From NCBI GenBank assembly GCA_964625865.1, contig CAZVEV010000001.1:1-62053 (forward strand): a stretch of 62,053 nucleotides of DNA, written 5' to 3'. Position numbers and translations under genes: made by a program. The notes beneath the pieces were generated by a model. The model made no database searches. It was not told where the DNA came from and worked only from the letters and a program-made list of their open reading frames with translations. This document shows, piece after piece, positions 3,148 through 22,584 of the stretch (position 1 is its first letter; every line of letters begins with the position of its first letter). This DNA comes from an uncultured Planctomycetaceae bacterium (GTDB lineage Bacteria > Planctomycetota > Phycisphaerae > SM23-33).

Positions 3148-3193
3148 GCTCGCGTCCTTATCATGGTTCGCCATCGCTGAGGCAAAGTGGCAG

Positions 3194-4633: not shown

Positions 4634-4634
4634 G

Positions 4635-7600
4635 TTAACGACCCTCTTTCTCGCCCAGGCAGACAAGCGCCCCGTCCATCGTGGCCATGTACAGGCGTCC
4701 GCCGGCGGCGATCAGCCCGTCGAAGACCGGCACTCGCTGGGTCTTCAGTTCCGACAGCGTGCTCCCGTCGGCGGCTCGCATTACGCGAAGCACGGACCCT
4801 CTCCGCCCGGTCATCGCTTCGAACGCCCCCGCGTCGGGGGCAAGGTCCGGCGGGCCGGCGATGTAGAGATGCTTGCCCTGTCCTGAGCCTGTCGAAGGGC
4901 CTGCCCCGCCCTTCGTCGAGGCCCCGGCCAGCACCATCCCGTGGGCGCGAATCGGCACCCGCTCGGACCATATCGGAAGCTCCGTCCGCGAGAAGCCCCG
5001 TCCCTTCTCGCGCCCGATCTCGATCGGCCTCAGCGTCGAAATGGTCGTGTTGCGGTCGGCAAACAGTTCATATCCGTCGCCGGGCGTGAACTCCGGGCTG
5101 TGTCCCCTGCGGTGGCGGTAGACCTTCAGGCCGTACGTCGTGCTCTCGTCGAAGGCCAGGATCTGCCCGGACTTGGCGCCGAGGTAGTTGAAGTAGTACC
5201 CGGGCCAGCGCTGCCCGTACACCCAGTAGGTCCGGTTGAACCACGTCTTGTCCAGGAAGCCGTCGGTGGTCATCAGGTGCATGCCCACCATGCGGTCGCC
5301 CAGCTTGGTCACGCGTGTGGTCGGCTGGACCGTCAGATCGGCGTTGAACCGCATCTGGAACATGTAGATGTCTTCGGCCCCGGCGACGAGGATGTCCGTC
5401 TTCGTGCCGGTCATGTCAAACGGGCGCCCGGCGTCCTTCGAGGTGTCGGGCCTGGGACTGGCGAGGTGTCTCTCGTGAATCACCTTGCCCGTCGCCGGGT
5501 CCAGGGCGTAGGCGGTGATGCCGCCGTCGAGGTACGAGGACCGCCCGGCCGTGAAGTACACGGTGGCACGGGCATCTTGCCCGTGTTGTCCCTTTACGGG
5601 CGAGACGCCCCTGCTACGAACCAGCACGCTGCCGTGAACGGGCCAGGCCGACTCGAGCTGCCCGCGTATGCAGACTTGGCGCAGCTTCGGCGCGGCCCGG
5701 AAGCGCCACACCAGCGCCCCGTCCGAGGCCCGCAGGCAGTAGACGTGTCCGTCGGTGCACCCGAACAGGACCAGCGATCCGTGTATGGTGGGGGGCGAGT
5801 CCACGCGGGCCCCCGCGATGTAATGCCACAACCGCTTGCCGGTCCCGGCGTCGACGCAGTGGACGGTGTGGGCGTCCGGCTCGGCGACGAAGACCCTCCC
5901 GCCGGCCGCCACCGGCGGCGTCAGCGCGCCGTGGCGCTGCTCGGGACGGACGTATTGCAGGCTTGCGCTTGGGCCGCCGCCGGGCGGCTTGTCGGGGCCG
6001 ATGGCGACGGCCTTGACGTTCCCCAGACGCCTCTCCACCTGCTTGACGGGCCGAACGCTGACAGTGAGGGCCCCGGTCTTGGCCAGGTTGACCTGCCCGA
6101 CGCGAACCCACACGAAGTCCGTCCAGCCGTTGGTATGGCGGATGCGGCCGGTGAGTTTCGCTTCACCGACGGCCAACTCGAACACCGATCCACCGGGGCC
6201 CGCGTTGGACTGGCAGATCCAGACCGTCTGCCTGCCGGCCGTCTGGATCTTCGCTCGCCACGTGATATACGTGTCCTTGCCGCGCCAGGCGCTTATATGG
6301 TCGCCGCTCTTCTTCGCTCCGCTGCCGTGGACCGTCGCATCGGCTGCACGGAGAACGAGGTGGCTGACCTTGTCAGTCGGTTCCTTGGGCTCGGGTTTCC
6401 CACCAGTGGCGGCTGTCCCGATCAGCGCGGTTGTCCACAGGCTGGCCGGCTTGGCGGTCAGGGCGGCGGTCGTCGATCCGCTCCGCCGGGCGTCGTGACG
6501 GTACGTGGGCCAGTCGGATTGTCGATTGTCGATTGCCGACTGCCGATTGATCTTGCCGTACGCCGGGCCGCGCGTCAGCCGGTCGGTCTTGTCAGCCTTG
6601 GGGACATCGTCGCTCGCACGCATCTTTGCGCCCAGGGCGTTCAGGCCGGTCAGCATGACGCCGGGGTAGCAGAAGCACTGGTGGGGGGGCACGTAGAGCA
6701 GCCCGTTGGCCGGGATCACGCCGAAGCCGCACGCCCCGCGCATCCAGTTGTGCCTCATGTGGTTCCTGCTGACCAGGTCGAAGAACTCCACGCCACGCTT
6801 GTTCAGCAGGAGGTAACGCTTGGTCGCCTTGGGGGGATAGCAGCGAATGTGGTGGCCGGCCGTAACCAGCCGCTCGGCCGTCACCGTCCGCGTCACCTTG
6901 CCGGTCTTCGGGTCGTAGCCGTTGCGGGTCTCGGGATCCGGCTGCCACAGGAAGCTCCTGCCGTGCCCGCCGGCCCAGGCCCGCCAGAGGAGGCCCGAGG
7001 CCACGAACAGCCCCGGCGGGTTCCGCGCGTGGCCGCTGGCGTTGGGGCCCTTCCAGAGTTGCTTGCCCGTCTCGGCTGACACCGCCAGCGTCCCGCTGCC
7101 AGTCAGGTAGACTGCGCCATCGTGCATGACCACGTATCCGCGGGAGCCTCCCTTCGCTGCCGTCCGCCACAACTCCTTGCCGTCGGACAGCCTCAGGCAA
7201 ACCACCTCCTTGCCGTTGAAGTAGCACACCCGCCCGCCGCCGGCTACCAGCGTGTTGCTCGCGATGGACGTGGCCTTGGTCGCCCACAGGACCTTCCCGT
7301 CGGCCGCGTCGGCTGCCACCACGTGCTTGCCCGCCTGGCCGCCGGCGGGCTTGACCGTGGTGTTGAGTATCACCTTGCCCTCGCAGACCGCGATCTCGCT
7401 GACCGTGCCGGTGTCCTTGCAGGTGTGGAGCGTCTTGCCCGTTGCCGCGTCCAGGATGCACAGGGGGCCGCGCCCGTTCTGCGGGGCATACAGCCGGTCC
7501 CCGGCGGCTGTCAGGGCGTGGGGATGGCCCCTGTTCCAGGGCCGCTTCCAGAGCAGCACGCCGTTGAATGCGTCGCGCGCGATCAGCGTCCACAGCGCGG

Positions 7601-8270
7601 GCACGCCGCGCGGCTGGCCGATGATGCCCTCGTCGATGATGGCAAACATGCGCCCCTTGGCGGTGACCATGGCGTGGACGCTGGATGCGAACTCGTGGCT
7701 GCGACACCACAGGGGCGTGGCCTGCCATTGCAGACGCTCGGGCGGGCCCACGCGGTCATCATCGGCTACTGCGTTGTTGCCCGAGTCGTGGAGGTAATGG
7801 CTCCACTCGTCTATTTCGTCCGGCCAGGGCTTGACCGTCCGCGTCCACTTGTCGCCTTGTCGCCTGACAAGGACGCCCAGCGGGGCCAGGACCCGCATCA
7901 TCTCCTCGCGGGAGACGCCCGCGTCGCCCTCGACGACCAGGAGGTTCACCATGTCGGCTGACAGGGGCAGGTGCTTGCTTCGCCAGTGCTCGACCGACAC
8001 CTTGCCGTACACACCCAGCGAACGGATATGCTCCCGGGCCGCCGCGACCTTGGCCGCATCGCGCTCGAGCCCCCGCACGAGGTAGCGGTCGTTGGCGCGT
8101 AACGCCGCCGTCAACTTGCCATCCCCGCAGCCGACGTGTACCACCAGTCCGCCTTTGACGCCTGCGGCCTCAATGATCTTCGAGGCCTGGCCATCGGCCG
8201 CCTGCAGCGTCCCGGTCATCATCAGAAGTGAAGCCAGTACGCACACTGCTGCCAACCGTCGGAATATCAT
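4635..8270 (-). CDS. paralog A: signal peptide + SAM-methyltransferase-like domain + double PQQ-like beta-propeller, with a CBM-like insertion
   Basis: 1211-aa ORF. Signal peptide MIFRRLAAVCVLASLLMMTGTLQA. Motif I-like VVHVGCGDGKLT followed by LVRGLE. DEWSHYLHDSGNNAV. Blades such as GRVFVAEPDAHTVHCVDAGTGKRLWHY. 4-Cys motif HHIRC..RGACGFGVIPANGLLYVPPHQCFCY. AAAGGTG precedes ATG 8270. Confidence 0.85.
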   Translation of the reverse strand: MIFRRLAAVCVLASLLMMTGTLQAADGQASKIIEAAGVKGGLVVHVGCGDGKLTAALRANDRYLVRGLERDAAKVAAAREHIRSLGVYGKVSVEHWRSKHLPLSADMVNLLVVEGDAGVSREEMMRVLAPLGVLVRRQGDKWTRTVKPWPDEIDEWSHYLHDSGNNAVADDDRVGPPERLQWQATPLWCRSHEFASSVHAMVTAKGRMFAIIDEGIIGQPRGVPALWTLIARDAFNGVLLWKRPWNRGHPHALTAAGDRLYAPQNGRGPLCILDAATGKTLHTCKDTGTVSEIAVCEGKVILNTTVKPAGGQAGKHVVAADAADGKVLWATKATSIASNTLVAGGGRVCYFNGKEVVCLRLSDGKELWRTAAKGGSRGYVVMHDGAVYLTGSGTLAVSAETGKQLWKGPNASGHARNPPGLFVASGLLWRAWAGGHGRSFLWQPDPETRNGYDPKTGKVTRTVTAERLVTAGHHIRCYPPKATKRYLLLNKRGVEFFDLVSRNHMRHNWMRGACGFGVIPANGLLYVPPHQCFCYPGVMLTGLNALGAKMRASDDVPKADKTDRLTRGPAYGKINRQSAIDNRQSDWPTYRHDARRSGSTTAALTAKPASLWTTALIGTAATGGKPEPKEPTDKVSHLVLRAADATVHGSGAKKSGDHISAWRGKDTYITWRAKIQTAGRQTVWICQSNAGPGGSVFELAVGEAKLTGRIRHTNGWTDFVWVRVGQVNLAKTGALTVSVRPVKQVERRLGNVKAVAIGPDKPPGGGPSASLQYVRPEQRHGALTPPVAAGGRVFVAEPDAHTVHCVDAGTGKRLWHYIAGARVDSPPTIHGSLVLFGCTDGHVYCLRASDGALVWRFRAAPKLRQVCIRGQLESAWPVHGSVLVRSRGVSPVKGQHGQDARATVYFTAGRSSYLDGGITAYALDPATGKVIHERHLASPRPDTSKDAGRPFDMTGTKTDILVAGAEDIYMFQMRFNADLTVQPTTRVTKLGDRMVGMHLMTTDGFLDKTWFNRTYWVYGQRWPGYYFNYLGAKSGQILAFDESTTYGLKVYRHRRGHSPEFTPGDGYELFADRNTTISTLRPIEIGREKGRGFSRTELPIWSERVPIRAHGMVLAGASTKGGAGPSTGSGQGKHLYIAGPPDLAPDAGAFEAMTGRRGSVLRVMRAADGSTLSELKTQRVPVFDGLIAAGGRLYMATMDGALVCLGEKEGR
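6517..6551 (-). repeat. in-CDS heptanucleotide tandem repeat, paralog A (GATTGTC-type, 5 units)
   Basis: gattgtc gattgtc gattgcc gactgcc gattgat. Encodes KINRQSAIDNRQSDW. Confidence 0.9.
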
Positions 8271-8285
8271 CTCTGCACCTTTCTG

Positions 8286-11200
8286 CTACTGCGCCTTTCC
8301 CAGGCAGATCACCTTGCCGTCGATCGTCGTCATGACCAGTCGGCCGTTGGCGGCGGCCAGCCCGTCGTGGACCGGCACGCCGGGGAGTTTCAGTTCGGCC
8401 TGCTTCGCGCCGTCCGATCGCGAGACCGCCCACAGCAGGGCCCCCTCGGCGCCCTTGAGGGCCGCGGCCTGTCGGACAAGCCTGGCCTGCGTGGCGGGCT
8501 GGTCGAACGTCTTGAATGAGTCCGGCTCATCGATCAGGTCCGGCGGGCCGGCGATGAAGAGCGTCTCGGCGGCAACGGCCATCGCGCGGACCCGCAGGGG
8601 CACGTCCTTCTGCCACGCGAACGGGATTCTGAACTTCCCGGCGCGGGAGTGGGGATAGTCGCGATTGGCACGCATGTAGTCCGTTGGGGGCGCGGGCGGA
8701 ACCGATGCCCTGGTTACAGCAAACAGGTGGTACTTCCGCCCGGTGGCGCCGGCGTAGGACCTGGGCTTGTACCCGTAGCCGTAGATCGTCTTGTCGGTGA
8801 CGGTCAGCAGCCGTCCGGCGGGGTTCTCGTGTCCGGCGAAGTACCAGCCGATGTAGCCCGAATAGAAATGCTCGCCGTAGATCCAGTACGTGCGGTGCCA
8901 CCAGTCGCCGTTGAGGAAGCCGGCCGGGCTGTACAGGTGCGGGCGCGACTTGGCGGGCTTCAGCGTCGCCGCGTCAAACGCCAGGCGGCGCATGAACACC
9001 TGCTTACCATCGCCGGACAACACGTCGGGAAGGGCGCCGGGCATCTCGAACCGGATCGGCTCGGCCGGCTGATCGACGGCGTCGTCGCCACGGCTGTACA
9101 GGCTCTTACTCGAAAGCTCCCGGCCGGTTCTCAGGTCCAGGCGATGCAGCGTCATCCCGCCGTCCAGATACGACGACCGCCCGGCCGCGAAGGTTACCAC
9201 GCCATCGCGAATCAGCACGCTTCCGTGGACCGGATGCGCCGAGGCGACCTGGCCGAACGCGACGATCCGCCGGCTCGTCGGGGCCGCCCGGAATCGCCAG
9301 GCCAACTCCCCATCGGCCAGCCTGACGCAGTAGACCCACCCGTCGGCCGAACCGAACACCGCCACGCCCTGCGAGACCGACGGCGGAGAGTCCACTCGTC
9401 CGCCGGTGGTGAACGACCAGGCCTCCTTGCCCGACGCGGCGTTCAGTGCGTGGACCGTGTGCGTGTTGATCGACGCGACCAGCACCTTACCGTCCGCCAC
9501 CACCGGGGCCGACAGCCTCCCACCTACGCCAGTGGTCCACGCCCGGGTCAGGTTCGCGGGAACCGCCGTCTTCGTGAATCCGCTTCGGGCCGCATCATGA
9601 CGATACGTGGGCCAATCGCCATTTGAAATCTGAGATCGGGAATCTGAGATTTCAGATTTGGAGTCTGAGATTTGAGACTTGAGATTTGAAATGTCCTTGC
9701 CGAATGCAGGCCCTTTCTCCAGTCGAGGCCCCTTCTCGATGGGAGGAACTTTCAACCTTGAACCTTCAACCTTCAACCGCCGTCTGGGCGCCAGCGCCAG
9801 AAAGCCCGTCAGCTTGGCCTCGATGTAGCAGGCGCACGAGTGGGGCGGGACGTAGAGCAGGCCGTTGCACGGGAGCGTGCCGAACTGGCACGTGCCGCGG
9901 ACCCAGTGATGGCGAAGCCCCTGTCCGCTTGCCAGGTCGATGAACTCCACGCCCGTCCGACCGGCTACGATGTAACGCGAGGTGGCGCGGTTGCGGTGGC
10001 ATCGATGGTGGGGCATGGTGGTCTTGAAGGCCCTGTCCGGGCGGATGCGCTTGACGATCTTGCCCGTGTGCAGGTCGCGCCCCGTGGTGAAGTCCGGGCC
10101 CGTTCGCGAGCGGCTCTGCCCGTACCACACCACGCCGTCGACGACGAACACGTCGATCGGGGCGTGATAGGCCTCGGCGGCCCGACACCGCCACAGTTCC
10201 TTACCGGTCGCGGCTGCGTGGGCCACCAGGTCGCCCGGCCAGCCCTCTCTCGCCAGCCAGGTCGCTATCCGCTTGCCCGTGCTCTCGTCGAGGTTCGATG
10301 CGGGGGTAGCCTGTCGGTCGGTGCAGAGGACGACGTCGCCGTGGGCAACAACCGTGGGGGCGGACCAGCCGGGTCGCTTCAGCGCGACGGTGCGCCCGGC
10401 CCGCCACAGTTCGCGGCCGGTCCCGGCATCCAGGCCGACCAGCCCGCGAGTGTCCATGTAGAACACGCGCCCGCCTGCGACGGTCAGGGCGGACGGCAGG
10501 ATGCGGACGTTGGGCTTCTTCCAGAGCACGTCGCCCTTGGCGGCATCGACGGCTAGGACAGTCATGGGCCCGGGCCCTGCACGGCCGGACCGCTCGGTCG
10601 CCGACGCTGCCGGGCTCGCCACGAGATAGAGCACGCCGTTGGAGTGGAGGATCTCCTCCGTGCCCTCCGTGCCCTTGTAGGTCGCAACCGTCCGCCCAGT
10701 CGCGGTGTCGAGGGCCGTCACTGGCGCCTGCAGGCCAAGCGTGACGTAAACACGGTTCTTCGTTGCGACGAGTCGTCGGGCCAGGGCAGGGGGGCCCTGG
10801 CGGAACGGCTTGAGGTGCGGGTGCCAGACCGGAATCGACCGCCTCCACAGCACCACGCCATTAAACGCGTCTCGTGCGACCAGCGCCCACTTCGGCGGCA
10901 AGACGACCGATGCGGCCGGGGCCTCGTCGATGATTGTGAACAGTCGCCCGCCCGCGGACACCACCGCCGTAACGCTGGCCAGTCGCTCGTGGTGGCGGGC
11001 GTTTCGGGGGGCGGCGATCCACTGAACGTGGTGCGGAGGGCCCACCGCCGTATCGGCGGCGACGGCGTTGTTCGTGGCGTCGTACAGCGTGTGCGTCCAG
11101 TCGTCGATCTCGCCGGGGCGCGGCTTGGCGATCTTCGCCAGACCGTCGGCCTGCCGGATGCATGCCATTCCGCCGGGGGCCAGCACACGGAGCAACTCGC

Positions 11201-11561
11201 CCGGCGGGACCTTCGCCCCGCCGTCGATCACGACGAGGTTGACCAGGTTCTCCGCATACGGCAGGGCCGGCGCGGTGCTCCACCGGTCGATCGACACCGG
11301 GCCGTACAGGCCCAGCGAACGGACATGCTTGCGGGCGGCAGCAACGTTCAGGGCCTCCGTGTCCAGGCCGTGGACAAGAAACGCATCACTCGCTCGCAGC
11401 GCGGCGGTCAGCTTCCCATCACCGCAGCCGACGTGCACGACCAAGCCGCCGGTGACGCTCGCAGTCTTGAGAATATCGTTCGCCTCGGCCGCCGTGATCA
11501 TTGGCGCGGAGATCGCGATGATCGCCAATCCCGCCAGAACAGTGCACATCGTCCGCATCAT
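8286..11561 (-). CDS. paralog B: signal peptide + SAM-methyltransferase-like domain + double PQQ-like beta-propeller
   Basis: The ORF track begins at 11762 (GTG inside a palindromic repeat). I place the start at ATGATG 11556-11561, with GAGGAG 6 nt upstream, giving MMRTMCTVLAGLAIIAISAPMITA. Motifs VVHVGCGDGKLT..LVHGLD, DDWTHTLYDATNNAV and PHHRCH..RGTCQFGTLPCNGLLYVPPHSCACY are present. Confidence 0.85.
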   Translation of the reverse strand: MMRTMCTVLAGLAIIAISAPMITAAEANDILKTASVTGGLVVHVGCGDGKLTAALRASDAFLVHGLDTEALNVAAARKHVRSLGLYGPVSIDRWSTAPALPYAENLVNLVVIDGGAKVPPGELLRVLAPGGMACIRQADGLAKIAKPRPGEIDDWTHTLYDATNNAVAADTAVGPPHHVQWIAAPRNARHHERLASVTAVVSAGGRLFTIIDEAPAASVVLPPKWALVARDAFNGVVLWRRSIPVWHPHLKPFRQGPPALARRLVATKNRVYVTLGLQAPVTALDTATGRTVATYKGTEGTEEILHSNGVLYLVASPAASATERSGRAGPGPMTVLAVDAAKGDVLWKKPNVRILPSALTVAGGRVFYMDTRGLVGLDAGTGRELWRAGRTVALKRPGWSAPTVVAHGDVVLCTDRQATPASNLDESTGKRIATWLAREGWPGDLVAHAAATGKELWRCRAAEAYHAPIDVFVVDGVVWYGQSRSRTGPDFTTGRDLHTGKIVKRIRPDRAFKTTMPHHRCHRNRATSRYIVAGRTGVEFIDLASGQGLRHHWVRGTCQFGTLPCNGLLYVPPHSCACYIEAKLTGFLALAPRRRLKVEGSRLKVPPIEKGPRLEKGPAFGKDISNLKSQISDSKSEISDSRSQISNGDWPTYRHDAARSGFTKTAVPANLTRAWTTGVGGRLSAPVVADGKVLVASINTHTVHALNAASGKEAWSFTTGGRVDSPPSVSQGVAVFGSADGWVYCVRLADGELAWRFRAAPTSRRIVAFGQVASAHPVHGSVLIRDGVVTFAAGRSSYLDGGMTLHRLDLRTGRELSSKSLYSRGDDAVDQPAEPIRFEMPGALPDVLSGDGKQVFMRRLAFDAATLKPAKSRPHLYSPAGFLNGDWWHRTYWIYGEHFYSGYIGWYFAGHENPAGRLLTVTDKTIYGYGYKPRSYAGATGRKYHLFAVTRASVPPAPPTDYMRANRDYPHSRAGKFRIPFAWQKDVPLRVRAMAVAAETLFIAGPPDLIDEPDSFKTFDQPATQARLVRQAAALKGAEGALLWAVSRSDGAKQAELKLPGVPVHDGLAAANGRLVMTTIDGKVICLGKAQ
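9623..9692 (-). repeat. in-CDS heptanucleotide tandem repeat, paralog B (YTGAGAT-type, 10 units)
   Basis: ttgaaat ctgagat cgggaat ctgagat ttcagat ttggagt ctgagat ttgagac ttgagat ttgaaat. Encodes ISNLKSQISDSKSEISDSRSQISNG. Confidence 0.9.
9752..9779 (-). repeat. in-CDS heptanucleotide tandem repeat, paralog B (TCAACCT-type, 4 units)
   Basis: tcaacct tgaacct tcaacct tcaaccg. Encodes RLKVEGSRLKV. Confidence 0.9.
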
Positions 11562-11653
11562 GTTCGACTCCTCGCCGCTGTGTGTCATGAGTACAGGATA
11601 GCGTATCCGGACACGAAACGGCATCGTGCGGTTCACCTGCGGATCGCACAACG

Positions 11654-11682
11654 AATCCCGATGTATATCGGGATTCACTCTC
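11654..11682. repeat. repeat family 3, copy 1 (AATCCCGATGTAYATCGGGAYTCACTCT)
   Basis: Palindrome TCCCGATGTATATCGGGA plus a conserved TTCACTCT tail. Confidence 0.8.
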
Positions 11683-11695
11683 CAACCGCCCAGTC

Positions 11696-11769
11696 GTAGG
11701 GCGTGCAACTGGTTTGCACGCGGAACGAACAGGCAATCCGTTCCGCGTGCAACGAGTTGCACGCCCTAC
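11696..11769. repeat. palindromic repeat family 1, copy 1 (GTAGGGCGTGCAAC...GTTGCACGCCCTAC)
   Basis: 74-bp nested palindrome. Each arm itself contains GTGCAAC..GTTGCAC. Located between paralogs B and C. Confidence 0.9.
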
Positions 11770-11804
11770 AACTACCGGGTGCGACAGTCCGCGACGGGTG
11801 GCGT

Positions 11805-14800: not shown

Positions 14801-15047
14801 GCGATCGGATGTGCTTCCGCGCGGCGGCAACGTTCTTCGCGTCGGCGTCCACGCCGTGAACGGTGTACGCGTCGCTCGCCCGCAGTGCCGCCGTCAGCCT
14901 GCCGTCGCCGCAGCCGACGTGGACCACCAGTCCGCCGGTGATGCCCGCGGTCTTGAGAATATCGTCCGTACTCGCCGCGTGTGCGTGTGGCGCGAGGGTC
15001 ACGACGATCGCCAATCCTGCGAGGACGGCGCTGAGTGTTCGTGTCAT
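11805..15047 (-). CDS. paralog C: signal peptide + SAM-methyltransferase-like domain + double PQQ-like beta-propeller
   Basis: 1080-aa ORF. MTRTLSAVLAGLAIVVTLAPHAHA signal. VVHVGCGDGRLT..VHGVD. DEWTHYLHGPDNNAV. HHRCH..RGPCLYGLMPANGLLYTPPSPCACY. AAGGAG SD before ATG 15047. Lys-rich tail segment KPAPKAKGAKKKKGRPRGG. Confidence 0.85.
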   Translation of the reverse strand: MTRTLSAVLAGLAIVVTLAPHAHAASTDDILKTAGITGGLVVHVGCGDGRLTAALRASDAYTVHGVDADAKNVAAARKHIRSLGLYGKVAVDTFDGSHLPYIDNTVNLVVAERPGKVARAEIMRVLAPGGVAIVSGTKTVKPRPANIDEWTHYLHGPDNNAVAADTVVGPPRRLQWQAGPKWTRHHDKMSSISAMVSEGGRIFYIFDEGSTASIHLPPHWALIARDAFNGKRLWTRKIGRWYNTFKGLKDGPADAPRRLVAAGGRVYATLSLQGPVTCMDAASGKTVRTYESTKGAEEIILSDGVLYVLIGPGSIGDGKRLERPAEKRRIVAINAATGRKLWQATDVVAALTMAVDGSGVYYFNFATQRVICLDRKTGQKLWTSADTLPTPKAQKSFFASKLVVSDGVVLLASGEYSGMIKSTGGANKPDTLTALSAQTSKTLWQGKHPPSGYSSPEDLFVIDGIVWCPTSSYGGADGRVVGFDLKTGRKAHSFPADNRSYWFHHRCHSGRATSNYIITSRTGTEFIDFRKKTWDLNHWTRGPCLYGLMPANGLLYTPPSPCACYAETYLHSFNALAPKSKVEGRRSKVPPLEKGPAYGKDISNLRSQISDGDWATYRGSNSRSGATSSSVPGRLRTTWKASIGGKLSTVTAAAGKVFVAEIDTHTVHAIDARNGKPVWRFTAGGRVDSPPTFFEGRMLFGSADGYVYCLRADDGTLIWRFRAAPADRRILVYEQVESLWPVHGSVLVREGVAHFVAGRSAFVDGGMTLFRLNARTGAVVSRTALNETNPNTGKNIQDTVKWLNMAVGRPDVLSCDGKRIYMRSQAFDLKGKRLAMGPTVGGAQEGSRQVAERTHLFCPTGFLDDTWFHRSYWMYGSTWSSGWCGYFVAGKHAPAGKIICVGDEKVYVFGREPQYYKWTVPLEYRLFAANKQWKAAAPGRLPPKPAPKAKGAKKKKGRPRGGAGPVTNPKNYAWSTDVPILVRAMALADKTLFVAGPPDVLNEASAGKQSAANAQQALKQEAALLGKSGAVLRAVAAGDGKTLANYTLPAPPVFDGLAVAGGRLIIALTDGTVICMSGRK
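13217..13244 (-). repeat. in-CDS heptanucleotide tandem repeat, paralog C (CTGAGAT-type, 4 units)
   Basis: ctgaaat ctgagat ctgagat ttgagat. Encodes ISNLRSQISDG. Confidence 0.9.
13281..13315 (-). repeat. in-CDS heptanucleotide tandem repeat, paralog C (GACCTTC, 4 perfect + 1 imperfect unit)
   Basis: gaccttc x4 then gacttcg. Encodes SKVEGRRSKV. Confidence 0.9.
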
Positions 15048-15136
15048 AATCGACTCCTTGTCAGTTCAGTTCGTCGTCGGATCGAACGACACGCGCGGAG
15101 CAAGCTCCGCCGCTTCACATGGATGGGACGACAAGT

Positions 15137-18100
15137 TCAACCGCCGCCAAGGCAGACGATCTTCCCGTCGGTCGTCGCGATGACCAGTCGCCCGGCGGTG
15201 GCGATCAGGCCGTCGAACACCGGCGGGGCGGGCAGCGCGAGTTCGGCGAGTTTCGTTCCGTCTTCGGTAGACACCGCCCAAAGTACCGCGCCGCGTTTGC
15301 CTTCCATCGCCTCGACCTGGGCGGCCAGCGCCTTTTGCGTCTCAGCGTCGTTCATCTTCCGGTAGGCCTGCTCTTCGTCCACCAGGTCGGCGGGGCCGGC
15401 AAGGAACAGCGTCTTGTCCGCCACGACCATCGCCCGGGCCATCAGCGGCAGGTCGACCGTCCAGTTGTGCTTGACCTTGAAGCCCTTTACCGCCGGGCTG
15501 CTCCCGCCCGTACCGCCAAAGAACCTCATCGCCTTGCCGACCTTCCCCGCCACCGCGCGAGCGCCCACGACCTTGCCGTGATTGCCCCTCCCCGACGCGT
15601 CGCTCGCCTTGCCGTCGTCGAACGAGCAGGCGAGGACCAGGTGCGCGTCCTTGCCGGCCGCCTTGCCTCCCGCCGCGGCTGCGATCTCAGCGGCGCCCAG
15701 GGCCCGACGATACACGCGGACCTCGTCGATCAGCCCGGTCAGCGGCAGCGTGCTGTTGTAGCCGCCGACGGACGACTCGTCGTCCATGCCGATCTCCATG
15801 CCTTCCTGCGGGTCGCCCGTGATCAGGCCCGGGGCCTTGCCCGACCCGGCCGGCTTGCCGTCGACATGGACCAGCACCTTGCCTTCGGCCGTGAGCACGC
15901 CTGCGACGTGCGTCCATTTCCCGACGACCTTCGCCTTGGCCGCCGCGGCGTGGATCTTGCCGTTCAGCCGTATCGCGAATCGCGCCCGCCCGCCCTGGAG
16001 GTACAGCACGTAACCCATACCCGTCCCGCCTCGGGCCAGGATCACGCCGTCCGGCTTGTCGCTCTTGACCCACGCGGCGACCGTCACCGGCTTGCCCGCC
16101 GTGTTGAGGGCCTTGCTCTTGGCGATCTGGATCAGCGACCGCTTGGGCGTGCGGGTCGGCTTGCGGGGCACTGACGAGGGGGCGGCATCCGGTGACTTTG
16201 CGGCCGCGAACAGGTGATGCTCGATCGGTGTGGTCCAGCGGTAGTACTTGGGCTTGCGTCCGAAGCCGTAGATCTGCTGGTCGTCGACGACGAGAATCCG
16301 CCCGGCCGGGGCGGCCGTGCCGCTGCGGTAATATCCCTGCCACCCGCTGACGAACATGCTGCCCCACATCCAGTACGTGCGATGCCACCACGTGTCGTCG
16401 AGGAAGCCTGTGGGGCTGAACAGGTGGGTATACTCCTTGGTCTGCGTCGGCGGCGGGGCGCCCTGGTCAGCGTCCTTTCCGCGGGGGAAGGGCTTGAGCG
16501 GCAATCGCTTGCCGTCGAATCCGAACGGCTGGGACCGCATGTAGACGAACTTCTCGTCGGCCGACAGCACGTCGGGCAGGCCCACGGGCATGTTCAGCCA
16601 ACTGACGTAGTCCTGCAGGCTCTTGCCCGCCTCGGTGTCCTTCTCGTCCAGGACGGTGCAGGACAGGACGGCCCCCGTGGCGGGCCTCAGCCGCCACAGG
16701 CGCAGGCCCGTGTCGAGGAACATCGAGCGCCCGGCGACGCAGTAGAGCACGTCGTCGCGGATCAGCACGCTGCCGTGGACGGGCCAGACGCTTTCGACCT
16801 GGCCGAACGAGACGGTTCGCTGGTCCATCGGCGCCGCGCGGAACCGCCACGCCAACTCGCCGTCGGCCACGCGCACGCTGTAGACCCATCCGTCGGCTGA
16901 GCCGAAGAAGGCGTGCCCGTTGTGGATGGTCGGCGGCGAGTCGACCCGCCCGCCGGCCCGGAACCGCCACCGCAGCTTGCCGGTCTCGGCGTCAACCGCA
17001 CAGACGGTGTGGTCGTCGATCGACGCGACGAAGACCATGCCCGCCGCCATCACCGGAGCTGACAGCTTCTTGCCCAAAACGCCCGTCGACCAGGCTGGCT
17101 TGAGCTGTGCGGGCACCTTCGTGGTCGACTTCCCCGTGCGGGCGTTGTCGTGACGATACGTCGGCCAGTCATTCGATTTACGATTGTAGATTTTAGATTT
17201 TAGATTGATCGTGCCATACGCGGGGCCCTTATCGAGGCGCGGGACCTTCGACCTTCGACCTTCGACCTTCGACGCCGGTGCGAGCGCATTAAAGCCGGAG
17301 AGCTTGGCTTCGAGGTAGCAGGCGCAGGGGTGCTGCGGGGCGTAGAGCAGGCCGTTGGCCGGGAGCACGCCGTATCCGCACGCGCCGCGGACCCAGTGGT
17401 TCACGTCCCAGGTCTTGTTGCGGACGTCGATGAACTCCGTGCCCGTGCGGGCCATCAGGAGGTACCGGTCGGTGGCCTTGCCGCGATAGCAGCGGTGGTG
17501 GAACCAGTAGATCTCGACGTCGGGTGGGAACTGGCGCACGACCTTGCCTGTCCGCGGGTCGCGCCCGGTAAACACGCCGACGGCCCGCCCGCTGGTGGTC
17601 TCGCCCGTCCAGACCAGTCCGTCGACGACCAGCAGGTCCTCCGACGAGCGGTAGCCCGACGGCGGGTGATACGCCGACCAGAGCACCTTGCCCGTCTTGC
17701 CCGACAGCGCCGTCATCGTGTCTTTGCCCTTGGTGTACCACGAGCCGGTCTGCATGCCCGCCGTCTCGCCGCCGGAGAACAGGACCACGTCCTCGTAGAG
17801 GACCAGGATGGGCCCGTAGAAGGCCTTGATCTCCTTGGCCCGCGCGATCGGGTCCGATCGCCAGGCCTGCTTGCCCGTCTTGCGGTCGAGGCTGACAACG
17901 CACTGCCCGTCGTGGAGCACCACGCGCCCGGAGTCGGCGGCCAGCGTCATCGGGAGGACCTTGGTCTTGACCGACCAGAGGGTCTTGCCTGTGTCCGCCT
18001 TGACCGCGACGATCTGCCTCTCGGCCTCGTCCCAGAACTTCGAACCGTATCCGCCGCGCGGCGGGGTGTACTCGGCGGTGTTGACCAGCGCGAAGAGGAC

Positions 18101-19012
18101 GCCGTCAGACAGGAGCATCTCCTCGGCGACCTTGGTCTGCTCGTACGTGCGCACGGTCTTGCCCGTCGCCGCATCGAGCGCCACGACCGGCCCGTCGATG
18201 CTCAGCGTGACGTATACGCGGTCGCCGGAGGCGATCAGGCGGCGCGGCAACTGGGCCGGGCCGCTCTTGAGCGGCCAGAGGTGCGTGTGCCACTTGCCCA
18301 TCTCCCGCTTCCACAGCACCACGCCGTTAAACGCGTCGCGGGCGACCACCGTCCATCGCGGCGCGGCCAGTATCGACGTGGGCGTCGCTTCGTCGAAGAT
18401 CGTAAAGACGCGTCCGCCGGCGGTGACGGCCGCGCTGAGGCTCGTCATGCGGTCGTGGTGGCGCGAGTACCTCGGCCCGCTGACCCACTGCATCCGGCGC
18501 GGCGGGCCGGCGACCGTGTCGCGGGCGACCGCGTTGTTGGTCGGGCTGTGCAGGAAGTGCGTCCACTCGTCGATCTCCTTCGGGCGCGGCTTGACGGTCT
18601 TGGTTCCGCCGATAAGCGCCACGCCGTTGGGCGCCAGGACGCGCATGACCTCGGCCATCGGCACCGAACCGAGGTCATCGCTGACGACCAGGTTGACCAG
18701 GTTGTCCACGTAGGGCAGGCGCGCGCCGTCGAACGTATCGACGGAGACCTTGCCGTACAGCCCCCTCGCCGCCACGTGCTTCCGTGCGGCGGCGACGTTT
18801 CGCGCGTCGGTATCAAGCCCATGAACGAGCAGGTTGTCCGCCGCGCGCAGGGCGGCGGTCAACTTCCCGTCGCCGCACCCGACGTGCACGATCAGTCCGC
18901 CGGTGACACCCGCAGTCTTGAGGATATCGTTCGCGCTCGCCGCGCGGGCGGGCGGGGTGAGGGTTACGATGATCGCCATCCCCGCAAGGATGGTGGCGCA
19001 TGTCCGTGTCAT
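15137..19012 (-). CDS. paralog D: signal peptide + SAM-methyltransferase-like domain + double PQQ-like beta-propeller, with a LamG/concanavalin-like insertion
   Basis: 1291-aa ORF. MTRTCATILAGMAIIVTLTPPARA signal. IVHVGCGDGKLT..LVHGLD. HHRCY..RGACGYGVLPANGLLYAPQHPCACY. LamG-like block VTVAAWVKSDKPDGVILARGG..YVLYLQGGRARFAI..WTHVAGV..LIDEVRVYRRAL. AAGGAG SD before ATG 19012. Confidence 0.85.
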   Translation of the reverse strand: MTRTCATILAGMAIIVTLTPPARAASANDILKTAGVTGGLIVHVGCGDGKLTAALRAADNLLVHGLDTDARNVAAARKHVAARGLYGKVSVDTFDGARLPYVDNLVNLVVSDDLGSVPMAEVMRVLAPNGVALIGGTKTVKPRPKEIDEWTHFLHSPTNNAVARDTVAGPPRRMQWVSGPRYSRHHDRMTSLSAAVTAGGRVFTIFDEATPTSILAAPRWTVVARDAFNGVVLWKREMGKWHTHLWPLKSGPAQLPRRLIASGDRVYVTLSIDGPVVALDAATGKTVRTYEQTKVAEEMLLSDGVLFALVNTAEYTPPRGGYGSKFWDEAERQIVAVKADTGKTLWSVKTKVLPMTLAADSGRVVLHDGQCVVSLDRKTGKQAWRSDPIARAKEIKAFYGPILVLYEDVVLFSGGETAGMQTGSWYTKGKDTMTALSGKTGKVLWSAYHPPSGYRSSEDLLVVDGLVWTGETTSGRAVGVFTGRDPRTGKVVRQFPPDVEIYWFHHRCYRGKATDRYLLMARTGTEFIDVRNKTWDVNHWVRGACGYGVLPANGLLYAPQHPCACYLEAKLSGFNALAPASKVEGRRSKVPRLDKGPAYGTINLKSKIYNRKSNDWPTYRHDNARTGKSTTKVPAQLKPAWSTGVLGKKLSAPVMAAGMVFVASIDDHTVCAVDAETGKLRWRFRAGGRVDSPPTIHNGHAFFGSADGWVYSVRVADGELAWRFRAAPMDQRTVSFGQVESVWPVHGSVLIRDDVLYCVAGRSMFLDTGLRLWRLRPATGAVLSCTVLDEKDTEAGKSLQDYVSWLNMPVGLPDVLSADEKFVYMRSQPFGFDGKRLPLKPFPRGKDADQGAPPPTQTKEYTHLFSPTGFLDDTWWHRTYWMWGSMFVSGWQGYYRSGTAAPAGRILVVDDQQIYGFGRKPKYYRWTTPIEHHLFAAAKSPDAAPSSVPRKPTRTPKRSLIQIAKSKALNTAGKPVTVAAWVKSDKPDGVILARGGTGMGYVLYLQGGRARFAIRLNGKIHAAAAKAKVVGKWTHVAGVLTAEGKVLVHVDGKPAGSGKAPGLITGDPQEGMEIGMDDESSVGGYNSTLPLTGLIDEVRVYRRALGAAEIAAAAGGKAAGKDAHLVLACSFDDGKASDASGRGNHGKVVGARAVAGKVGKAMRFFGGTGGSSPAVKGFKVKHNWTVDLPLMARAMVVADKTLFLAGPADLVDEEQAYRKMNDAETQKALAAQVEAMEGKRGAVLWAVSTEDGTKLAELALPAPPVFDGLIATAGRLVIATTDGKIVCLGGG
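17172..17206 (-). repeat. in-CDS heptanucleotide tandem repeat, paralog D (TTAGATT-type, 5 units)
   Basis: ttcgatt tacgatt gtagatt ttagatt ttagatt. Encodes INLKSKIYNRKSN. Confidence 0.9.
17243..17270 (-). repeat. in-CDS heptanucleotide tandem repeat, paralog D (GACCTTC, 4 perfect units)
   Basis: gaccttc x4. Encodes SKVEGRRSKV. Confidence 0.9.
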
Positions 19013-19075
19013 AGTCGACTCCTTATCAGTTCAGTTCGTTGTCGGACCGAACGACGAACGCGGGGCGTTGCCCCG

Positions 19076-19137
19076 CCGCTAAACGTTGTGTGCGGTAGAG
19101 CAGCGCCATGCCGCGCGGGTGCGCCACTGTTTAGCGG
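19076..19137. repeat. repeat family 2 termini in inverted order (CCGCTAAAC ... GTTTAGCGG)
   Basis: CCGCTAAAC at 19076-19084 (preceded by the GCGGGGCGTTGCCCCGC hairpin) and GTTTAGCGG at 19129-19137. Confidence 0.6.
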
Positions 19138-19143
19138 TTGGGC

Positions 19144-19172
19144 AATCCCGATGTACATCGGGACTCACTCTT
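19144..19172. repeat. repeat family 3, copy 2
   Basis: AATCCCGATGTACATCGGGACTCACTCT. Confidence 0.8.
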
Positions 19173-19208
19173 CATCTGCGCAGTGCGTTCGTCATCGAAG
19201 CACGAGGT

Positions 19209-22200
19209 CTACTTCGCACCGCCCATGCACGTGACCTTGCCGTCGGTCGTTACGATGTAGATCCGCCCGGCGGCGGCGATCAGTCCGTCGAACACCGGCG
19301 GGGCGGTGAGTTTCATCTCGGACACCATCTTACCGTCGCCGGCCGCGTGGACGCGCAGCACGGCGCCCTTGCGCCCCTCGAAGGCGCCCATCGGATCTTT
19401 CGGGTCCAGGACGTCCGGCGGGCCGGCGATCACCAGGTGCTTGCCCGCCAGCGTCATCGCGCGAATGCGGACCGGGACCCACTTGAACCACGCCGGCGGG
19501 GCCTTCCGCGTAAAGCCGATGCCCTTGGGCACGCCTCGCGTGTAGTCCGGAAGCACCGGGTCGTTGTCATTGGCGTCGGCGAACAGGAGGTAGCCTTCCT
19601 TGCCCGGCGTGAACAGGGGGCTCTGCAGGTTCCTGTACGGGAAGGCCTGCACGGCGTACGTCCTGTCCGGACCGACGACGAGCAGTTGTCCCGTCTTGGC
19701 GCCGTAGTTGGCGATGTGGAAACCGGGCCAGGTTGGCGAGTACATCCAGAACGTCCTGTTGTACCACGAGTCGTCGAGGAACCCGCCGGTGGCGAAGATG
19801 TGGCGGCCCATCGTCCGCTCGCCCATACTGCTTGCGCCATACTTCTTCTTGTGCTCCGCCGTCATCTTCGGCCACACGCGAGCCTGCCAGTTCCTCTGGA
19901 CCACCTCGTCCTTCTTCTGTGTCTGCACCCTCAACGCATAGGGCTTGTCCAGCAGGTCCTCCATGCCCATCGCGTCGGGATTCTTTTCATCCTTGAGCAG
20001 CGGGTAGGGGACGTCTTCCTGCTTCAGGGCCAGGTCGAGTTGATACTGACCCAGGTAGATCTTCCCGCCTTCGCTTACCAGCACGTCCGACGTGGCGCCC
20101 TCGATGTGATAGCTCGGGATGAACGGCTTGTCCTTGGCGTCCTGGCGCGTGTGGGCCCACGTGTCCAGGCGCGTCTGGGCCACGATCTTGCCCGTGGCCG
20201 GATCGAGTGCAAAGACGTAGATCCCGCCGTCGAGGAACGTCGATCGCCCGGCCGTGCAGTAGGCCACGCCCTCAGTCACAAGAACGCTGCCGTGCACGCG
20301 CCAGGGCGATTCCAACTGGCCGAACGCGACGATTCGCCGTTCCCGCGGCGCCGCGCGGAACCGCCACGCCAGCGCGCCGTCGGCGGCACGGAGGCAGTAA
20401 ACGTATCCGTCCGCACTGCCGAACAGGACGCGCCCGCCGTCGATGGTCGGGGGCGAGTCGATCCGCCCGCCTGCCGTGAACTGCCACACCCCCTTGCCGC
20501 TTCGCACATCCAACGCATACAGCGTGTGGGCGTCCCTGGCGGCCACGTACACCCGCCCCCCGGCGGCTACCGGAGGCGTGAGGCGACCCTTGAGTTCCAC
20601 CGTCCACTGTGCGGCCAACTTGGCCGGCACCTCGCACGTCGCCGCGCCGCTGCGCCGAGCGTCCCGGCGGTACGTGGGCCAATCCGATTTCGGATTTCGG
20701 ATTTCGGATTTCGGATTCTTCGCTCCGTACGCGGGTCCCTTTTCGAGGCGCGAGACCTTCGACCTTTGACCTTCGACCTTCGACGGGTCCTTCCCTGTCA
20801 GCGCCTGGAAGCCGGTCAGCTTCACGCCGGGGTAGCAGAAGCACGGGTCCGGCGGGACGTAGAGCAGGCCGTTGCCCGGCATCACGCCGTACTTGCAGGC
20901 CCCGCGCGTCCAGTCGTGCTGGGAGTTCTTCTGGCCGGTCAGGCTCACGAACTCCACGCCGCGACACGGCGTGATGACGTACTTCTCGGTGGCCTTGCTC
21001 TGGTAGCACCGCGGGTGGTGGCCCGGGGTGAACACGTCGGCGGCGCTGACCTTCTCGCCCGCCTTGCCGGTGGCCAGGTCGATGCTCGCCATCCCACTGC
21101 CGCTTCGCTGCCAGATCTTGCCCTGTGCGACGAACGGCTCGGCGCCGAGCCTGCCCTTGGCCGTCCACAGCGTCTTGCCCGTCTTGACGTCCACCGCCGT
21201 CATCCCTCCGGGGCCGTTGAACAGCACGCGGTCGCCGCAGGCCAGCACGAGCCCCGCCGGTGCGCCCCGCCGCCTCTTGGGCTTCTTCGCGCCGGGCTTC
21301 CTGGGCGCCGGCTCGGGCTTCTTGACCGGAGCCGGGGCCGCGGTCTTCCACAATTCCTTGCCCGTCTTGAGGTCGAGGCACGTGACGGCCTGCCCGGCCT
21401 GGTAGAAGGCCCTGCCGTCCTGGGCCGCCAACGACAGGGCGTTGAGGGCGGCGGTCTTGACCCAGAGTTTGCGGGCGGTCTTGGCGTCAAAGGCCATCAC
21501 CACGTTGGCGCCTTTGCGGACCAGGACCACGCCGTCGCAGCAGCGAAGTTCCTGGGCCCCGTCGGAGCCCTCGCAGGTGGCGAGCACCTTGCCCGTCGCC
21601 GCGTCGAGAATCGACACCGGCGCGGTGTAGCCCAGCGTGACCATCAGGCGGTCGCCTTCGGCCACGATGCGCCGCGGAACCGTCGGCGGGATGCTCCGCA
21701 GGGCCTTGCTTCGCCACTGGCTGGTGCCCCACTGCTTGAGCGGGCGCTCCCACAGGAGCACGCCGTTAAACGCGTCCCGCGCGGTCAGCACCCATCGCTC
21801 GGGCAGGGGCCCGTCGGTGATGCCGGTCTTGCCCTGGTCGGCGATGTAGAACACGCGCCCGCCGGCGGAGATCATGGCGACGAGGCTGGAGTTGAACTCG
21901 TGGCTGCGCGACCACAGGGGCCCGCAGGTCCACCGCAGTCCGCGCGGCGGGGCGATCCGCGTGTCGGACGCCACCGCGTTGTTCGACGCGTCGTGGAGGA
22001 AGTGCGACCAGTCGTCAATGTCGCCCGGGTGCGGCTTGACGGTCTTGACGCCGCCGATGTACGCTGCGCCCTCCGGCGCCAGGACGCGCATGACCTCGGC
22101 CATCGGCACCGCGCCGAGGTCGTCGGCCACCAGGAGATTGACCAGGTCGTCGGCGTACGGCAGGGCCTTGCCCGCCAACCGGTCAACCGACACCTTGCCG

Positions 22201-22460
22201 TACACGCCGAGCGACTGAATGGTCTTGCGGGCCTTGGCGACGTTCGCGGCTTCGGTATCCAGGCCGTGGACCAGGAATGCGTCGGTCGCTCGCAGGGCCG
22301 CCGTCAGCTTGCCGTCTCCACAGCCGAGATGCACCACCAGCCCGCCCTTGACGCCCGTGGCGTCGAGGATGCTCTTTGCGTCCGCGGCCCGGGCGGCCGG
22401 CGCTACGCTCAGCACGATCACCAATCCAGCCAATACCGTATGCTCAATCCACTTTGTCAT
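19209..22460 (-). CDS. paralog E: signal peptide + SAM-methyltransferase-like domain + double PQQ-like beta-propeller
   Basis: ORF 19209-22493. ATG 22458-22460 has AAGGAG 7 nt upstream and gives MTKWIEHTVLAGLVIVLSVAPAARA. VVHLGCGDGKLT..LVHGLD. DDWSHFLHDASNNAV. HHPRCY..RGACKYGVMPGNGLLYVPPDPCFCY. The antisense 1232-aa ORF is R/G/P-rich. Confidence 0.85.
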   Translation of the reverse strand: MTKWIEHTVLAGLVIVLSVAPAARAADAKSILDATGVKGGLVVHLGCGDGKLTAALRATDAFLVHGLDTEAANVAKARKTIQSLGVYGKVSVDRLAGKALPYADDLVNLLVADDLGAVPMAEVMRVLAPEGAAYIGGVKTVKPHPGDIDDWSHFLHDASNNAVASDTRIAPPRGLRWTCGPLWSRSHEFNSSLVAMISAGGRVFYIADQGKTGITDGPLPERWVLTARDAFNGVLLWERPLKQWGTSQWRSKALRSIPPTVPRRIVAEGDRLMVTLGYTAPVSILDAATGKVLATCEGSDGAQELRCCDGVVLVRKGANVVMAFDAKTARKLWVKTAALNALSLAAQDGRAFYQAGQAVTCLDLKTGKELWKTAAPAPVKKPEPAPRKPGAKKPKRRRGAPAGLVLACGDRVLFNGPGGMTAVDVKTGKTLWTAKGRLGAEPFVAQGKIWQRSGSGMASIDLATGKAGEKVSAADVFTPGHHPRCYQSKATEKYVITPCRGVEFVSLTGQKNSQHDWTRGACKYGVMPGNGLLYVPPDPCFCYPGVKLTGFQALTGKDPSKVEGQRSKVSRLEKGPAYGAKNPKSEIRNPKSDWPTYRRDARRSGAATCEVPAKLAAQWTVELKGRLTPPVAAGGRVYVAARDAHTLYALDVRSGKGVWQFTAGGRIDSPPTIDGGRVLFGSADGYVYCLRAADGALAWRFRAAPRERRIVAFGQLESPWRVHGSVLVTEGVAYCTAGRSTFLDGGIYVFALDPATGKIVAQTRLDTWAHTRQDAKDKPFIPSYHIEGATSDVLVSEGGKIYLGQYQLDLALKQEDVPYPLLKDEKNPDAMGMEDLLDKPYALRVQTQKKDEVVQRNWQARVWPKMTAEHKKKYGASSMGERTMGRHIFATGGFLDDSWYNRTFWMYSPTWPGFHIANYGAKTGQLLVVGPDRTYAVQAFPYRNLQSPLFTPGKEGYLLFADANDNDPVLPDYTRGVPKGIGFTRKAPPAWFKWVPVRIRAMTLAGKHLVIAGPPDVLDPKDPMGAFEGRKGAVLRVHAAGDGKMVSEMKLTAPPVFDGLIAAAGRIYIVTTDGKVTCMGGAK
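20684..20718 (-). repeat. in-CDS heptanucleotide tandem repeat, paralog E (CGGATTT-type, 5 units)
   Basis: ccgattt cggattt cggattt cggattt cggattc. Encodes KNPKSEIRNPKSD. Confidence 0.9.
20754..20781 (-). repeat. in-CDS heptanucleotide tandem repeat, paralog E (GACCTTC-type, 4 units)
   Basis: gaccttc gaccttt gaccttc gaccttc. Encodes SKVEGQRSKV. Confidence 0.9.
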
Positions 22461-22584
22461 GGTCGGCTCCTTGTCGCGGACTATCGTGTGCACAAGAGCA
22501 TACCGTATTGCCCCCCCCGAATGCCACGCGACATCGCAGAGGGCTCCATAGAGACGATGGCAAGGCGGCCAGGAGGGCGGCTAA

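Follow-up and report, generated by a model that had tools for sequence, protein, structure and literature searches.

Heptanucleotide arrays in the inter-propeller linkers of a planctomycete protein family: probable microsatellites of permissive loops rather than on/off switches

Introduction

This work concerns short tandem repeats in a 62,053-nt stretch of DNA from an uncultured Planctomycetaceae bacterium (contig CAZVEV010000001.1 of assembly GCA_964625865.1; Phycisphaerae, SM23-33), which was analysed over its whole length and is referred to as the window. Five tandem minus-strand open reading frames (ORFs), paralogs A to E, each encode a signal peptide, an S-adenosylmethionine (SAM)-methyltransferase-like domain, a PQQ_2 propeller, a linker and a second PQQ_2 propeller, and it is within the linkers that arrays of 7-bp units are found. 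According to the original prediction, these arrays could act as frameshift switches between the full two-propeller protein and a truncated product. The analysis reported here points instead, with a probability of roughly 0.6, to heptanucleotide microsatellites that are located in permissive linker loops, evolve in concert and are kept in frame by selection, and that are not on/off switches.

Results

Nine Arrays in Five Linkers

Along the coding strand the linker is composed of an upstream tract, the segment (R/P)LEKGPAYG and a downstream tract, followed by DWPTYR; paralog A has the downstream array only. Tandem Repeats Finder (TRF), run on the whole window, returned nine period-7 rows (Table 1), together with one period-21 and one period-14 row that fall on the same tracts. 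All nine are situated inside the five inter-propeller linkers and none elsewhere in the 62 kb, so that the intergenic DNA of the window is free of heptamer arrays by TRF. With 3.7-6.4 copies per tract and 75-100% matches, the rows represent head-to-tail 7-nt units in at least three copies of high identity, and reading of the coding strand gives peptides such as SKVEGRRSKV, KSEIRNPKS and ISNLKSQISDSKSE. TRF and the coding-strand reading thus confirm the predicted tandem 7-bp tracts flanking (R/P)LEKGPAYG between the propellers of the five paralogs. Chance does not account for the tracts: all five window linkers score at least 16 for period-7 self-similarity, while none of 606 equal-length control segments of the same gene family reaches 12.

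Other details of the prediction need to be revised. The tenfold tract proposed for paralog B is present, but the array is degenerate (75% matches and 10% indels by TRF), and the linker of B measures 207 nt, as compared with 141-150 nt in the other four paralogs. A different unit had been assigned to each gene, which does not hold for the upstream arrays, where GACCTTC (GAAGGTC on the coding strand) is the same in C, D and E and differs by one base in B; the downstream units do differ from gene to gene, yet have a common AATC core on the coding strand. Misassembly does not explain the tracts, since six contigs from six different samples match the window without gaps (99.98-99.99% identity, alignments of 9.7-23 kb, all tracts covered), and the exact protein C is found on seven public contigs. 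The samples are JGI 3300009431, 3300009128, 3300009320, 3300009314 and 3300013117, and ENA ERZ23498668. No tract-length variant was seen among the six assemblies.

A Family-Wide Hot Spot for Period 7

The paralogs belong to a very large family, with more than 6,500 matches at E <= 1e-20 that stem mostly from metagenome-assembled genomes (MAGs) of Planctomycetota and Phycisphaerae. Many of 120 homologues examined have peptides with a 7-residue period directly before DWPTYR, among them QIENRNSQIENPN, NPKSEIRNPQS, LDTRHSTLDTS and ELKTQNSELKTEN, and some have such peptides upstream of RLEKGPAY as well. A scan of species-representative genomes yielded 80 loci (1.32 Mb including the window). It covered 101 family genes, delimited by tblastn anchors flanking the linker, in about 80 genomes of Planctomycetota, Verrucomicrobiota and other lineages. 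Period 7 was the commonest in the 1.32 Mb, with 141 TRF rows compared with 47, 55 and 131 for periods 6, 8 and 9, respectively, and the linkers hold 35 of these 141 rows although they make up 1.2% of the DNA. Furthermore, period 7 was the best self-similarity period in 41 of the 101 linkers, and strong arrays (period-7 score of at least 12) were present in 17, but in none of the 606 control segments taken from these genes; among periods 3 to 12, only period 7 was enriched. The linker is a family-wide hot spot for period 7.

More than half of the homologues have no detectable arrays. In most of the 101 genes the linker is 141-153 nt long, with arrays present or absent, so that the arrays replace sequence instead of adding to it, and there is no sign that a foreign element was inserted. 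About 60% of the downstream arrays share the AATC core across distant genomes, and the upstream arrays share no core with them.

A Second Paired Site

When 83 period-7 arrays with a TRF score of at least 35 from the related loci were sorted by location, 29 were assigned to the linker, 17 to a second site in the same family, one to another position in a family gene and four to DNA just outside family genes, the remainder lying in DNA without an open frame (23) or in other open frames (nine). The two sites of this family thus account for 46 of the 83 arrays, and the location is not predominantly intergenic. The second site is found in the methyltransferase domain, at residues ~109-147 of C, and has the arrangement NLVV-[AGTGGNN]n-DEILRVLAPNGVALL-[AAATCCN]n-KPRPxxIDEW, in which two arrays surround a short conserved segment, as in the linker. 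The window paralogs have no residual period 7 at this site.

Reading Frame and Position of the Arrays

In a simulation, adding or removing one or two units gave products of ~590-740 aa instead of 1080-1291 aa, with stop codons 0-160 codons downstream, so that the predicted truncation soon after the first propeller was borne out. The switch itself was not. In all 101 family genes both linker anchors are in the same frame (out-of-frame linkers: 0/101), and none of ten clusters of 90% identity contains a member that is frameshifted in the linker. The split gene pair P0143/P0144, from one cluster, was considered as an OFF allele and rejected, its break being upstream of the linker and not inside it. 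The window arrays start at residues 569-690 of proteins of 1080-1291 aa, that is, in the middle of the gene and without 5' enrichment, and comprise 4-5 units, B having up to ~10 degenerate ones. By contrast, known phase-variable heptanucleotide tracts have 13-38 units (PMC2651432), and phase-variable simple sequence repeats (SSRs) in coding DNA cluster near the 5' end of the ORF, corresponding to the N-terminus (PMC3315296). Since the frame is kept throughout, no indel is seen in six assemblies and no linker frameshift in ten clusters, and the units are few and positioned mid-gene, a switch is unsupported.

Turnover and Sharing of Units

Within the clusters of 90% identity the linker is the most variable part. 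Two genes with 90.8% nucleotide identity, P0006 and P0179, have the downstream-array peptides AIANRQSATGNQD and ALEPRTSNLATPS, encoded by (ATCGGCA)n and (CTCGAAC)n, respectively, which are identical in length and register but only 52% identical over these 90 nt. Close relatives therefore differ by equal-length, in-register replacement of the unit and not by ±7 bp. The proposal that the unit is exchanged at the DNA level, the position being kept, is upheld by this pair as well as by more distant orthologues: those closest to C (74%) and E (76%), both from one related genome, have no upstream array and carry MAATCCG arrays downstream. Other orthologues of the C clade are likewise without SKVEGRR, which one D orthologue retains.

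Units are shared between paralogs of one genome. Protein identity between C and D is 57% and DNA identity 67%; across the upstream array, however, the two match without interruption for 35 nt, and the array and spacer taken together show 84-87% identity among C, D and E. In family loci totalling ~1.4 Mb and drawn from more than 80 genomes, (GAAGGTC)2 is confined to the C, D and E linkers of the window. Likewise, in MAG129 four paralogs on three contigs, 51-57% identical, have AGTGGNG and AAATCCA units in common at the site in the methyltransferase domain, and in the linker they share units of the AAATCCA type. Evolution of the arrays is concerted, and units found alike in old paralogs of a genome, yet different from one genome to the next, indicate short-patch gene conversion between paralogs or a genome-specific driver. 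Shuffling of whole modules at the linker was considered too and is not indicated, because the N- and C-terminal halves of A to E give congruent distances.

Another cluster of 90% identity is polymorphic (0, +8 or +16 residues) for a palindromic-element-like peptide inside the downstream array (HVLSAAEGS; PVPSTGSGQALSAAEGS), and PSPFGRGAGGEG is a further insert peptide of this kind, while the insert of L062 resembles repetitive extragenic palindromic (REP) sequences (Table 1). As these inserts are unrelated, the linker site tolerates arbitrary in-frame DNA. These inserts recall the small dispersed repeats that are reported to insert into heptamer arrays in Nostoc.

Protein and Nucleic-Acid Structure

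A model of C was calculated by AlphaFold2 from an alignment of 23 sequences, with a mean predicted local distance difference test (pLDDT) score of 75 and a predicted template modelling (pTM) score of 0.82. The pLDDT is ~53 for the upstream-array peptide (residues 580-589, with 581-585 below 50), 91 for the conserved segment P591-G599, which includes a strand at 592-594, and ~62 for the downstream-array peptide (601-612), before it rises to 83 from DWATYR onward. In the model both arrays thus lie in low-confidence loops around a confident strand, which suggests that the pair forms two floppy loops on either side of an anchored strand.

A hairpin between the two arrays was rejected, for the window because RNA folding of the five linkers was no better than that of shuffled sequences (z -0.34 to +1.57), and as a general rule because only nine of 90 array pairs were complementary at p <= 0.05 where 4.5 are expected. 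Single cases of complementarity do occur, in L023 and in gene 2 of L210. In the latter (L210/L211, 13255-16488) the upstream (TTCCAGG)n and the downstream (GAACCCG/AAACCCG)n are approximately reverse complements flanking a spacer that codes for RLERGPAY, a potential hairpin within the gene. Rfam gave no match in window positions 4000-23000.

Heptamer Arrays in Other Metagenomic DNA

A metagenome scan for (AAATCCN)4 gave at least 120 stretches on contigs of 30-70% GC, from which 80 loci with 87 arrays were kept. No open frame was present within ±210 nt of 52 of the 87 arrays, an inverted partner array was nearby for ten, and none of the 87 belonged to the PQQ family. In-frame (AAATCCN)n was nevertheless found in housekeeping genes identified by Pfam (amidase/GatA, SecA, UvrC, TsaD, methionine aminopeptidase and ATP-dependent DNA ligase), and in a DnaE-like gene and a gene for a membrane protein the whole inverted (AAATCCG)n pair is in frame (KSEIRNPKSE...GFRISDFGF). 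The original prediction had also considered that the linker tracts are exapted copies of an intergenic repeat family; (AAATCCN)n is indeed abundant and mostly intergenic in metagenomes, but the linker length that is kept with or without arrays gives no hint of an inserted foreign element, and this alternative is partly upheld.

Intergenic heptamer arrays often occur as inverted pairs, such as GAAGGGT...TCACCCT and GTCAGAA...TCTGTCC, several of them just downstream of genes. These pairs could form long periodic hairpins.

Neighbouring Features

A sixth PQQ-propeller protein (window 289-3174, minus strand) adjoins the five paralogs and has a permuted domain order, with the methyltransferase-like segment between the two propellers; heptamer tracts were not found in it. 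Near the C-terminus of paralog A (window 4875-4910, minus strand), CCTTCGACAGGCTCAGGACAGG encodes GGAGPSTGSGQG, a peptide of the PSTGSGQ type, which is also inserted inside arrays of other family members; the segment may represent a small dispersed repeat that was copied in frame. The DUF5077 match in A is weak by Pfam. Further along the window (35050-35949, minus strand), an ORF encodes a duplicated, lysine/alanine/proline-rich (KKAAPKK) low-complexity protein resembling histone H1, the repeats of which (35249-35779) have periods of 12, 15 and 27, all multiples of three, unlike the period-7 tracts.

Table 1. Positions of the paralogs and their arrays in the window, and of related features in other loci (identified by L or P numbers).
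Feature	Position	Strand	TRF period-7 row	Description	Basis
Paralog A	4635..8270	(-)		signal peptide, methyltransferase-like domain, PQQ_2 propeller, linker, DUF5077-like insert, PQQ_2 propeller	ORF + Pfam
Paralog B	8286..11762	(-)		gene start in public contigs ~11588 (1100 aa)	ORF + Pfam
Paralog C	11805..15047	(-)		1080 aa	ORF + Pfam
Paralog D	15137..19012	(-)		carries Laminin_G_3 insert	ORF + Pfam
Paralog E	19209..22493	(-)			ORF + Pfam
A downstream array	6517..6551	(-)	6517-6549	CAATCGR, ~4.7 units, peptide INRQSAIDNRQS	TRF + coding-strand reading
B downstream array	9623..9692	(-)	9645-9689	degenerate AAATCTC/AGATCTC type, ~6-10 units, peptide ISNLKSQISDSKSEISDSRSQISN	
B spacer	9693..9746	(-)		encodes PPIEKGPRLEKGPAFGKD; EKGP motif twice (IEKGPRLEKGP)	
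B upstream array	9747..9779	(-)	9747-9778	GAAGGTT, ~4.6 units, peptide RLKVEGSRLKV	
C downstream array	13215..13244	(-)	13215-13244	AGATCTC type, 4.3 units, peptide DISNLRSQISDG, residues 601-612	
C spacer	13245..13280	(-)		encodes PPLEKGPAYGK, residues 590-600	
C upstream array	13281..13315	(-)	13281-13315	GAAGGTC, 5.1 units, peptide SKVEGRRSKV, residues 580-589	
D downstream array	17172..17207	(-)	17182-17207	AAATCTA/AAATCGN type, ~4-5 units, peptide INLKSKIYNRKSN	
D upstream array	17243..17273	(-)	17243-17273	GAAGGTC, 4.4 perfect units	
E downstream array	20684..20718	(-)	20686-20717	AAATCCG, 4.6 perfect units, peptide NPKSEIRNPKS	
E upstream array	20754..20784	(-)	20754-20784	GAAGGTC type, 4.4 units, one A variant, peptide SKVEGQRSKV	
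Second-site pairs, other genomes	L042 5133-5242, 10286-10394; L054 10307-10409; L078 10253-10352; L038 1097-1199; L048 6099-6205; L017 10303-10417; L076 10336-10438; L082 6717-6833				
In-frame palindromic/REP-like inserts inside the downstream array	P0024/P0160, P0162-P0164, P0007; L056 9798-9991; L062 1916-2160; L076 17320-17528				
Metagenome contigs with in-frame (AAATCCN)n arrays or pairs	L097, L099, L126, L137, L143, L155, L088, L095				
Intergenic inverted pairs	L010 3299-3500; L008 7830-7885; L043 10725-10783, 15292-15339; L009 6157-6218; L088, L092, L095, L118				

Discussion

Under the interpretation that we favour, the arrays would reside in the tether that joins the propellers, in two structurally unconstrained loops flanking a short strand (RLEKGPAYG) that is anchored. 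Replication slippage, and gene conversion over short patches among paralogs within a genome, would regenerate and homogenise them, so that the units change in concert, while purifying selection would remove variants that break the frame or strongly alter the length of the tether. The surviving product would be an in-frame tract of ~4-5 units that encodes a hydrophilic, disordered and presumably neutral peptide. The arrays would thus probably be the footprint of a mutational process acting on a permissive site, and not a programmed switch.

Several points weigh against this interpretation. Non-triplet repeats in the middle of a gene are expected to be under strong counter-selection. To homogenise a 7-bp array without frameshifted intermediates would require steps of 21 bp or conversion, both of which are postulated here, and samples were compared at the level of assemblies, so that length variants of low frequency may exist. 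At least 46 of the ~56 open-frame arrays in these loci fall in two sites of one family, a concentration that a purely passive model of permissive loops leaves unexplained. The unit types of MAG129 recur at two non-homologous sites of one gene, for which gene conversion through homologous flanks alone is insufficient. In addition, the AATC core that is seen across distant genomes could reflect a filter on peptide chemistry or a sequence preference.

The unexplained concentration at two sites, together with genome-specific units even at non-homologous sites, leaves room for an active genome-specific process, such as a selfish microsatellite-like element, repair or templated synthesis, that writes a favoured heptamer into permissive sites in place of passive slippage. 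The units common to divergent paralogs, as well as to both sites in MAG129, are in line with such a process, as are the replacement of sequence without a change in length, the whole inverted (AAATCCG)n pairs in frame in the DnaE-like and membrane-protein genes, and the amplified heptamers documented elsewhere, for example Xanthomonas GGGAATC, those of Nostoc and Beggiatoaceae TAACTGA (PMC4692102, PMC4679880). We nevertheless regard it as rather unlikely, given that no candidate enzyme or template was identified, that the intergenic DNA of the window is without arrays, and that short-patch conversion between paralogs accounts for most of the sharing within genomes. The source-genome DNA covered amounts to ~60-80 kb. 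In its more specific form, a 'drive' or templated repair that writes or homogenises one heptamer at several permissive sites of a genome, including non-homologous coding loops of divergent paralogs, the proposal is unlikely. Selection could alternatively act on the peptide, if phage, predators or proteases favoured a hydrophilic, flexible and fast-diversifying tether that heptamers are the quickest way to generate. Consistent with this, the proteins have signal peptides, the linker is hypervariable within one 90%-identity cluster, and the encoded residues are rich in K, S, E, R, N, P and Q, the orientation being always the hydrophilic one (AAATCCN reads KSEIRNP in sense and would read GFRISDF in antisense). 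Selection of this type would not, however, keep a 7-nt periodicity at synonymous positions, and 4-5 units encode fewer than two peptide periods; as the divergence is also approximately that expected from neutral change plus homogenisation, selection on the peptide appears quite improbable.

A functional nucleic-acid signal at the domain boundary could consist of a protein-binding array on the mRNA, with 7-nt footprints like those of HutP or cold-shock proteins, or of a translational pause that aids folding or export of the first propeller. A position conserved across phyla in spite of changing sequence would fit such a signal, and so would the paired arrays around a short conserved segment at two different sites, the frequent AATC core of downstream arrays and the reported binding of CspB to heptamer repeats, with one protein bound per heptamer (PMC4679880). 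Against it stand the many homologues without arrays, units that differ between genomes and have no core common to the upstream and downstream positions, the lack of stable folding in the window linkers, of general array complementarity and of an Rfam match, and a site that accepts unrelated insertions, which together make a signal very improbable. Periodic binding arrays of the HutP or TRAP type repeat a short conserved core at regular spacing and have a dedicated binding protein; in the present family the AATC core is seen in ~60% of the downstream arrays only. For a phase-variable switch, in which gain or loss of a unit would toggle the full two-propeller protein and a truncated methyltransferase-plus-propeller product, we see hardly any likelihood. 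Its attraction lies in nine tracts inside five ORFs with a unit that is not a multiple of three, in the stop codons that a shift would bring into play, and in one allele of Haemophilus influenzae hmw1A, where a mid-ORF (AATTTTG)14 tract carries a frameshift (PMC2651432). Several tracts are, moreover, perfect, which implies recent slippage or homogenisation. The frame kept in all 101 family genes, the lack of length variants among the six assemblies, the low copy number and the mid-gene position described above nevertheless speak against a switch, which moreover would not be conserved, since many homologues have decayed arrays or none at the linker site.

Microsatellites in permissive loops can be compared with several known systems. 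Rickettsia palindromic elements are palindromic insertions of ~100-150 bp that lengthen the host protein. As here, DNA of a non-coding repeat type is tolerated in frame in surface loops of conserved proteins, whereas the present arrays are not palindromic, as judged from folding and complementarity, and do not lengthen the linker. As far as it is summarised in later reports, heptanucleotides are the most abundant class of long SSRs in many large GC-rich genomes (Mrazek, Guo and Shah 2007, via PMC4692102, PMC4679880); a polymerase-slippage origin has been suggested for them and their function is unsettled (PMC4692102, PMC4679880). In those accounts these SSRs resemble the present arrays in their head-to-tail 7-nt units of few copies, dominant period 7, fast turnover and lack of an established function, but are mainly intergenic, with triplet-multiple units favoured in genes (PMC4692102, PMC4679880), whereas those described here keep the reading frame, lie in the interior of genes and recur, across phyla, in the same two loops of a single protein family. 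Genome-specific heptamers are known from Xanthomonas (GGGAATC), Nostoc (GGGGAYT), Calothrix and Beggiatoaceae (TAACTGA), and in bacteria other than those studied here, amplified heptamers of this genome-specific kind occupy over 100 unrelated loci (PMC4692102, PMC4679880). Like the cyanobacterial short tandemly repeated repetitive (STRR) sequences, the Xanthomonas, Nostoc and Beggiatoaceae heptamers have one favoured unit per genome, as here, and are occasionally inside ORFs, but they are overwhelmingly intergenic and often near gene ends (PMC4692102, PMC4679880), while within the 62 kb studied here only coding sites are occupied. Contingency loci such as H. influenzae hmw1A/hmw2A (PMC2651432) also have a non-triplet repeat in which gain or loss of a unit would shift the frame; the present arrays differ from them in having 4-5 units with no length polymorphism or OFF alleles seen, and in belonging to an environmental planctomycete and not to a host-adapted pathogen. 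A literature search returned nothing on heptanucleotide repeats in Planctomycetes or on the peptide motifs.

The arrays show that non-triplet microsatellites, although they would be expected to disappear from gene interiors, persist in frame at two loops of a very large family across phyla. They account for odd peptides that recur in metagenomes, such as KSEIRNPKSE, SKVEGRRSKV and GFRISDFGF, including those in housekeeping enzymes, and they caution annotators that unit length alone is no ground for calling a tract phase-variable. The family provides a natural system for asking how heptanucleotide repeats arise and become homogenised, their over-representation having been noted since 2007 without explanation. 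If a genome-specific drive or templated repair were indeed at work, the coding loops of this protein family of the Planctomycetes-Verrucomicrobia-Chlamydiae (PVC) group would constitute a readable record of that process.

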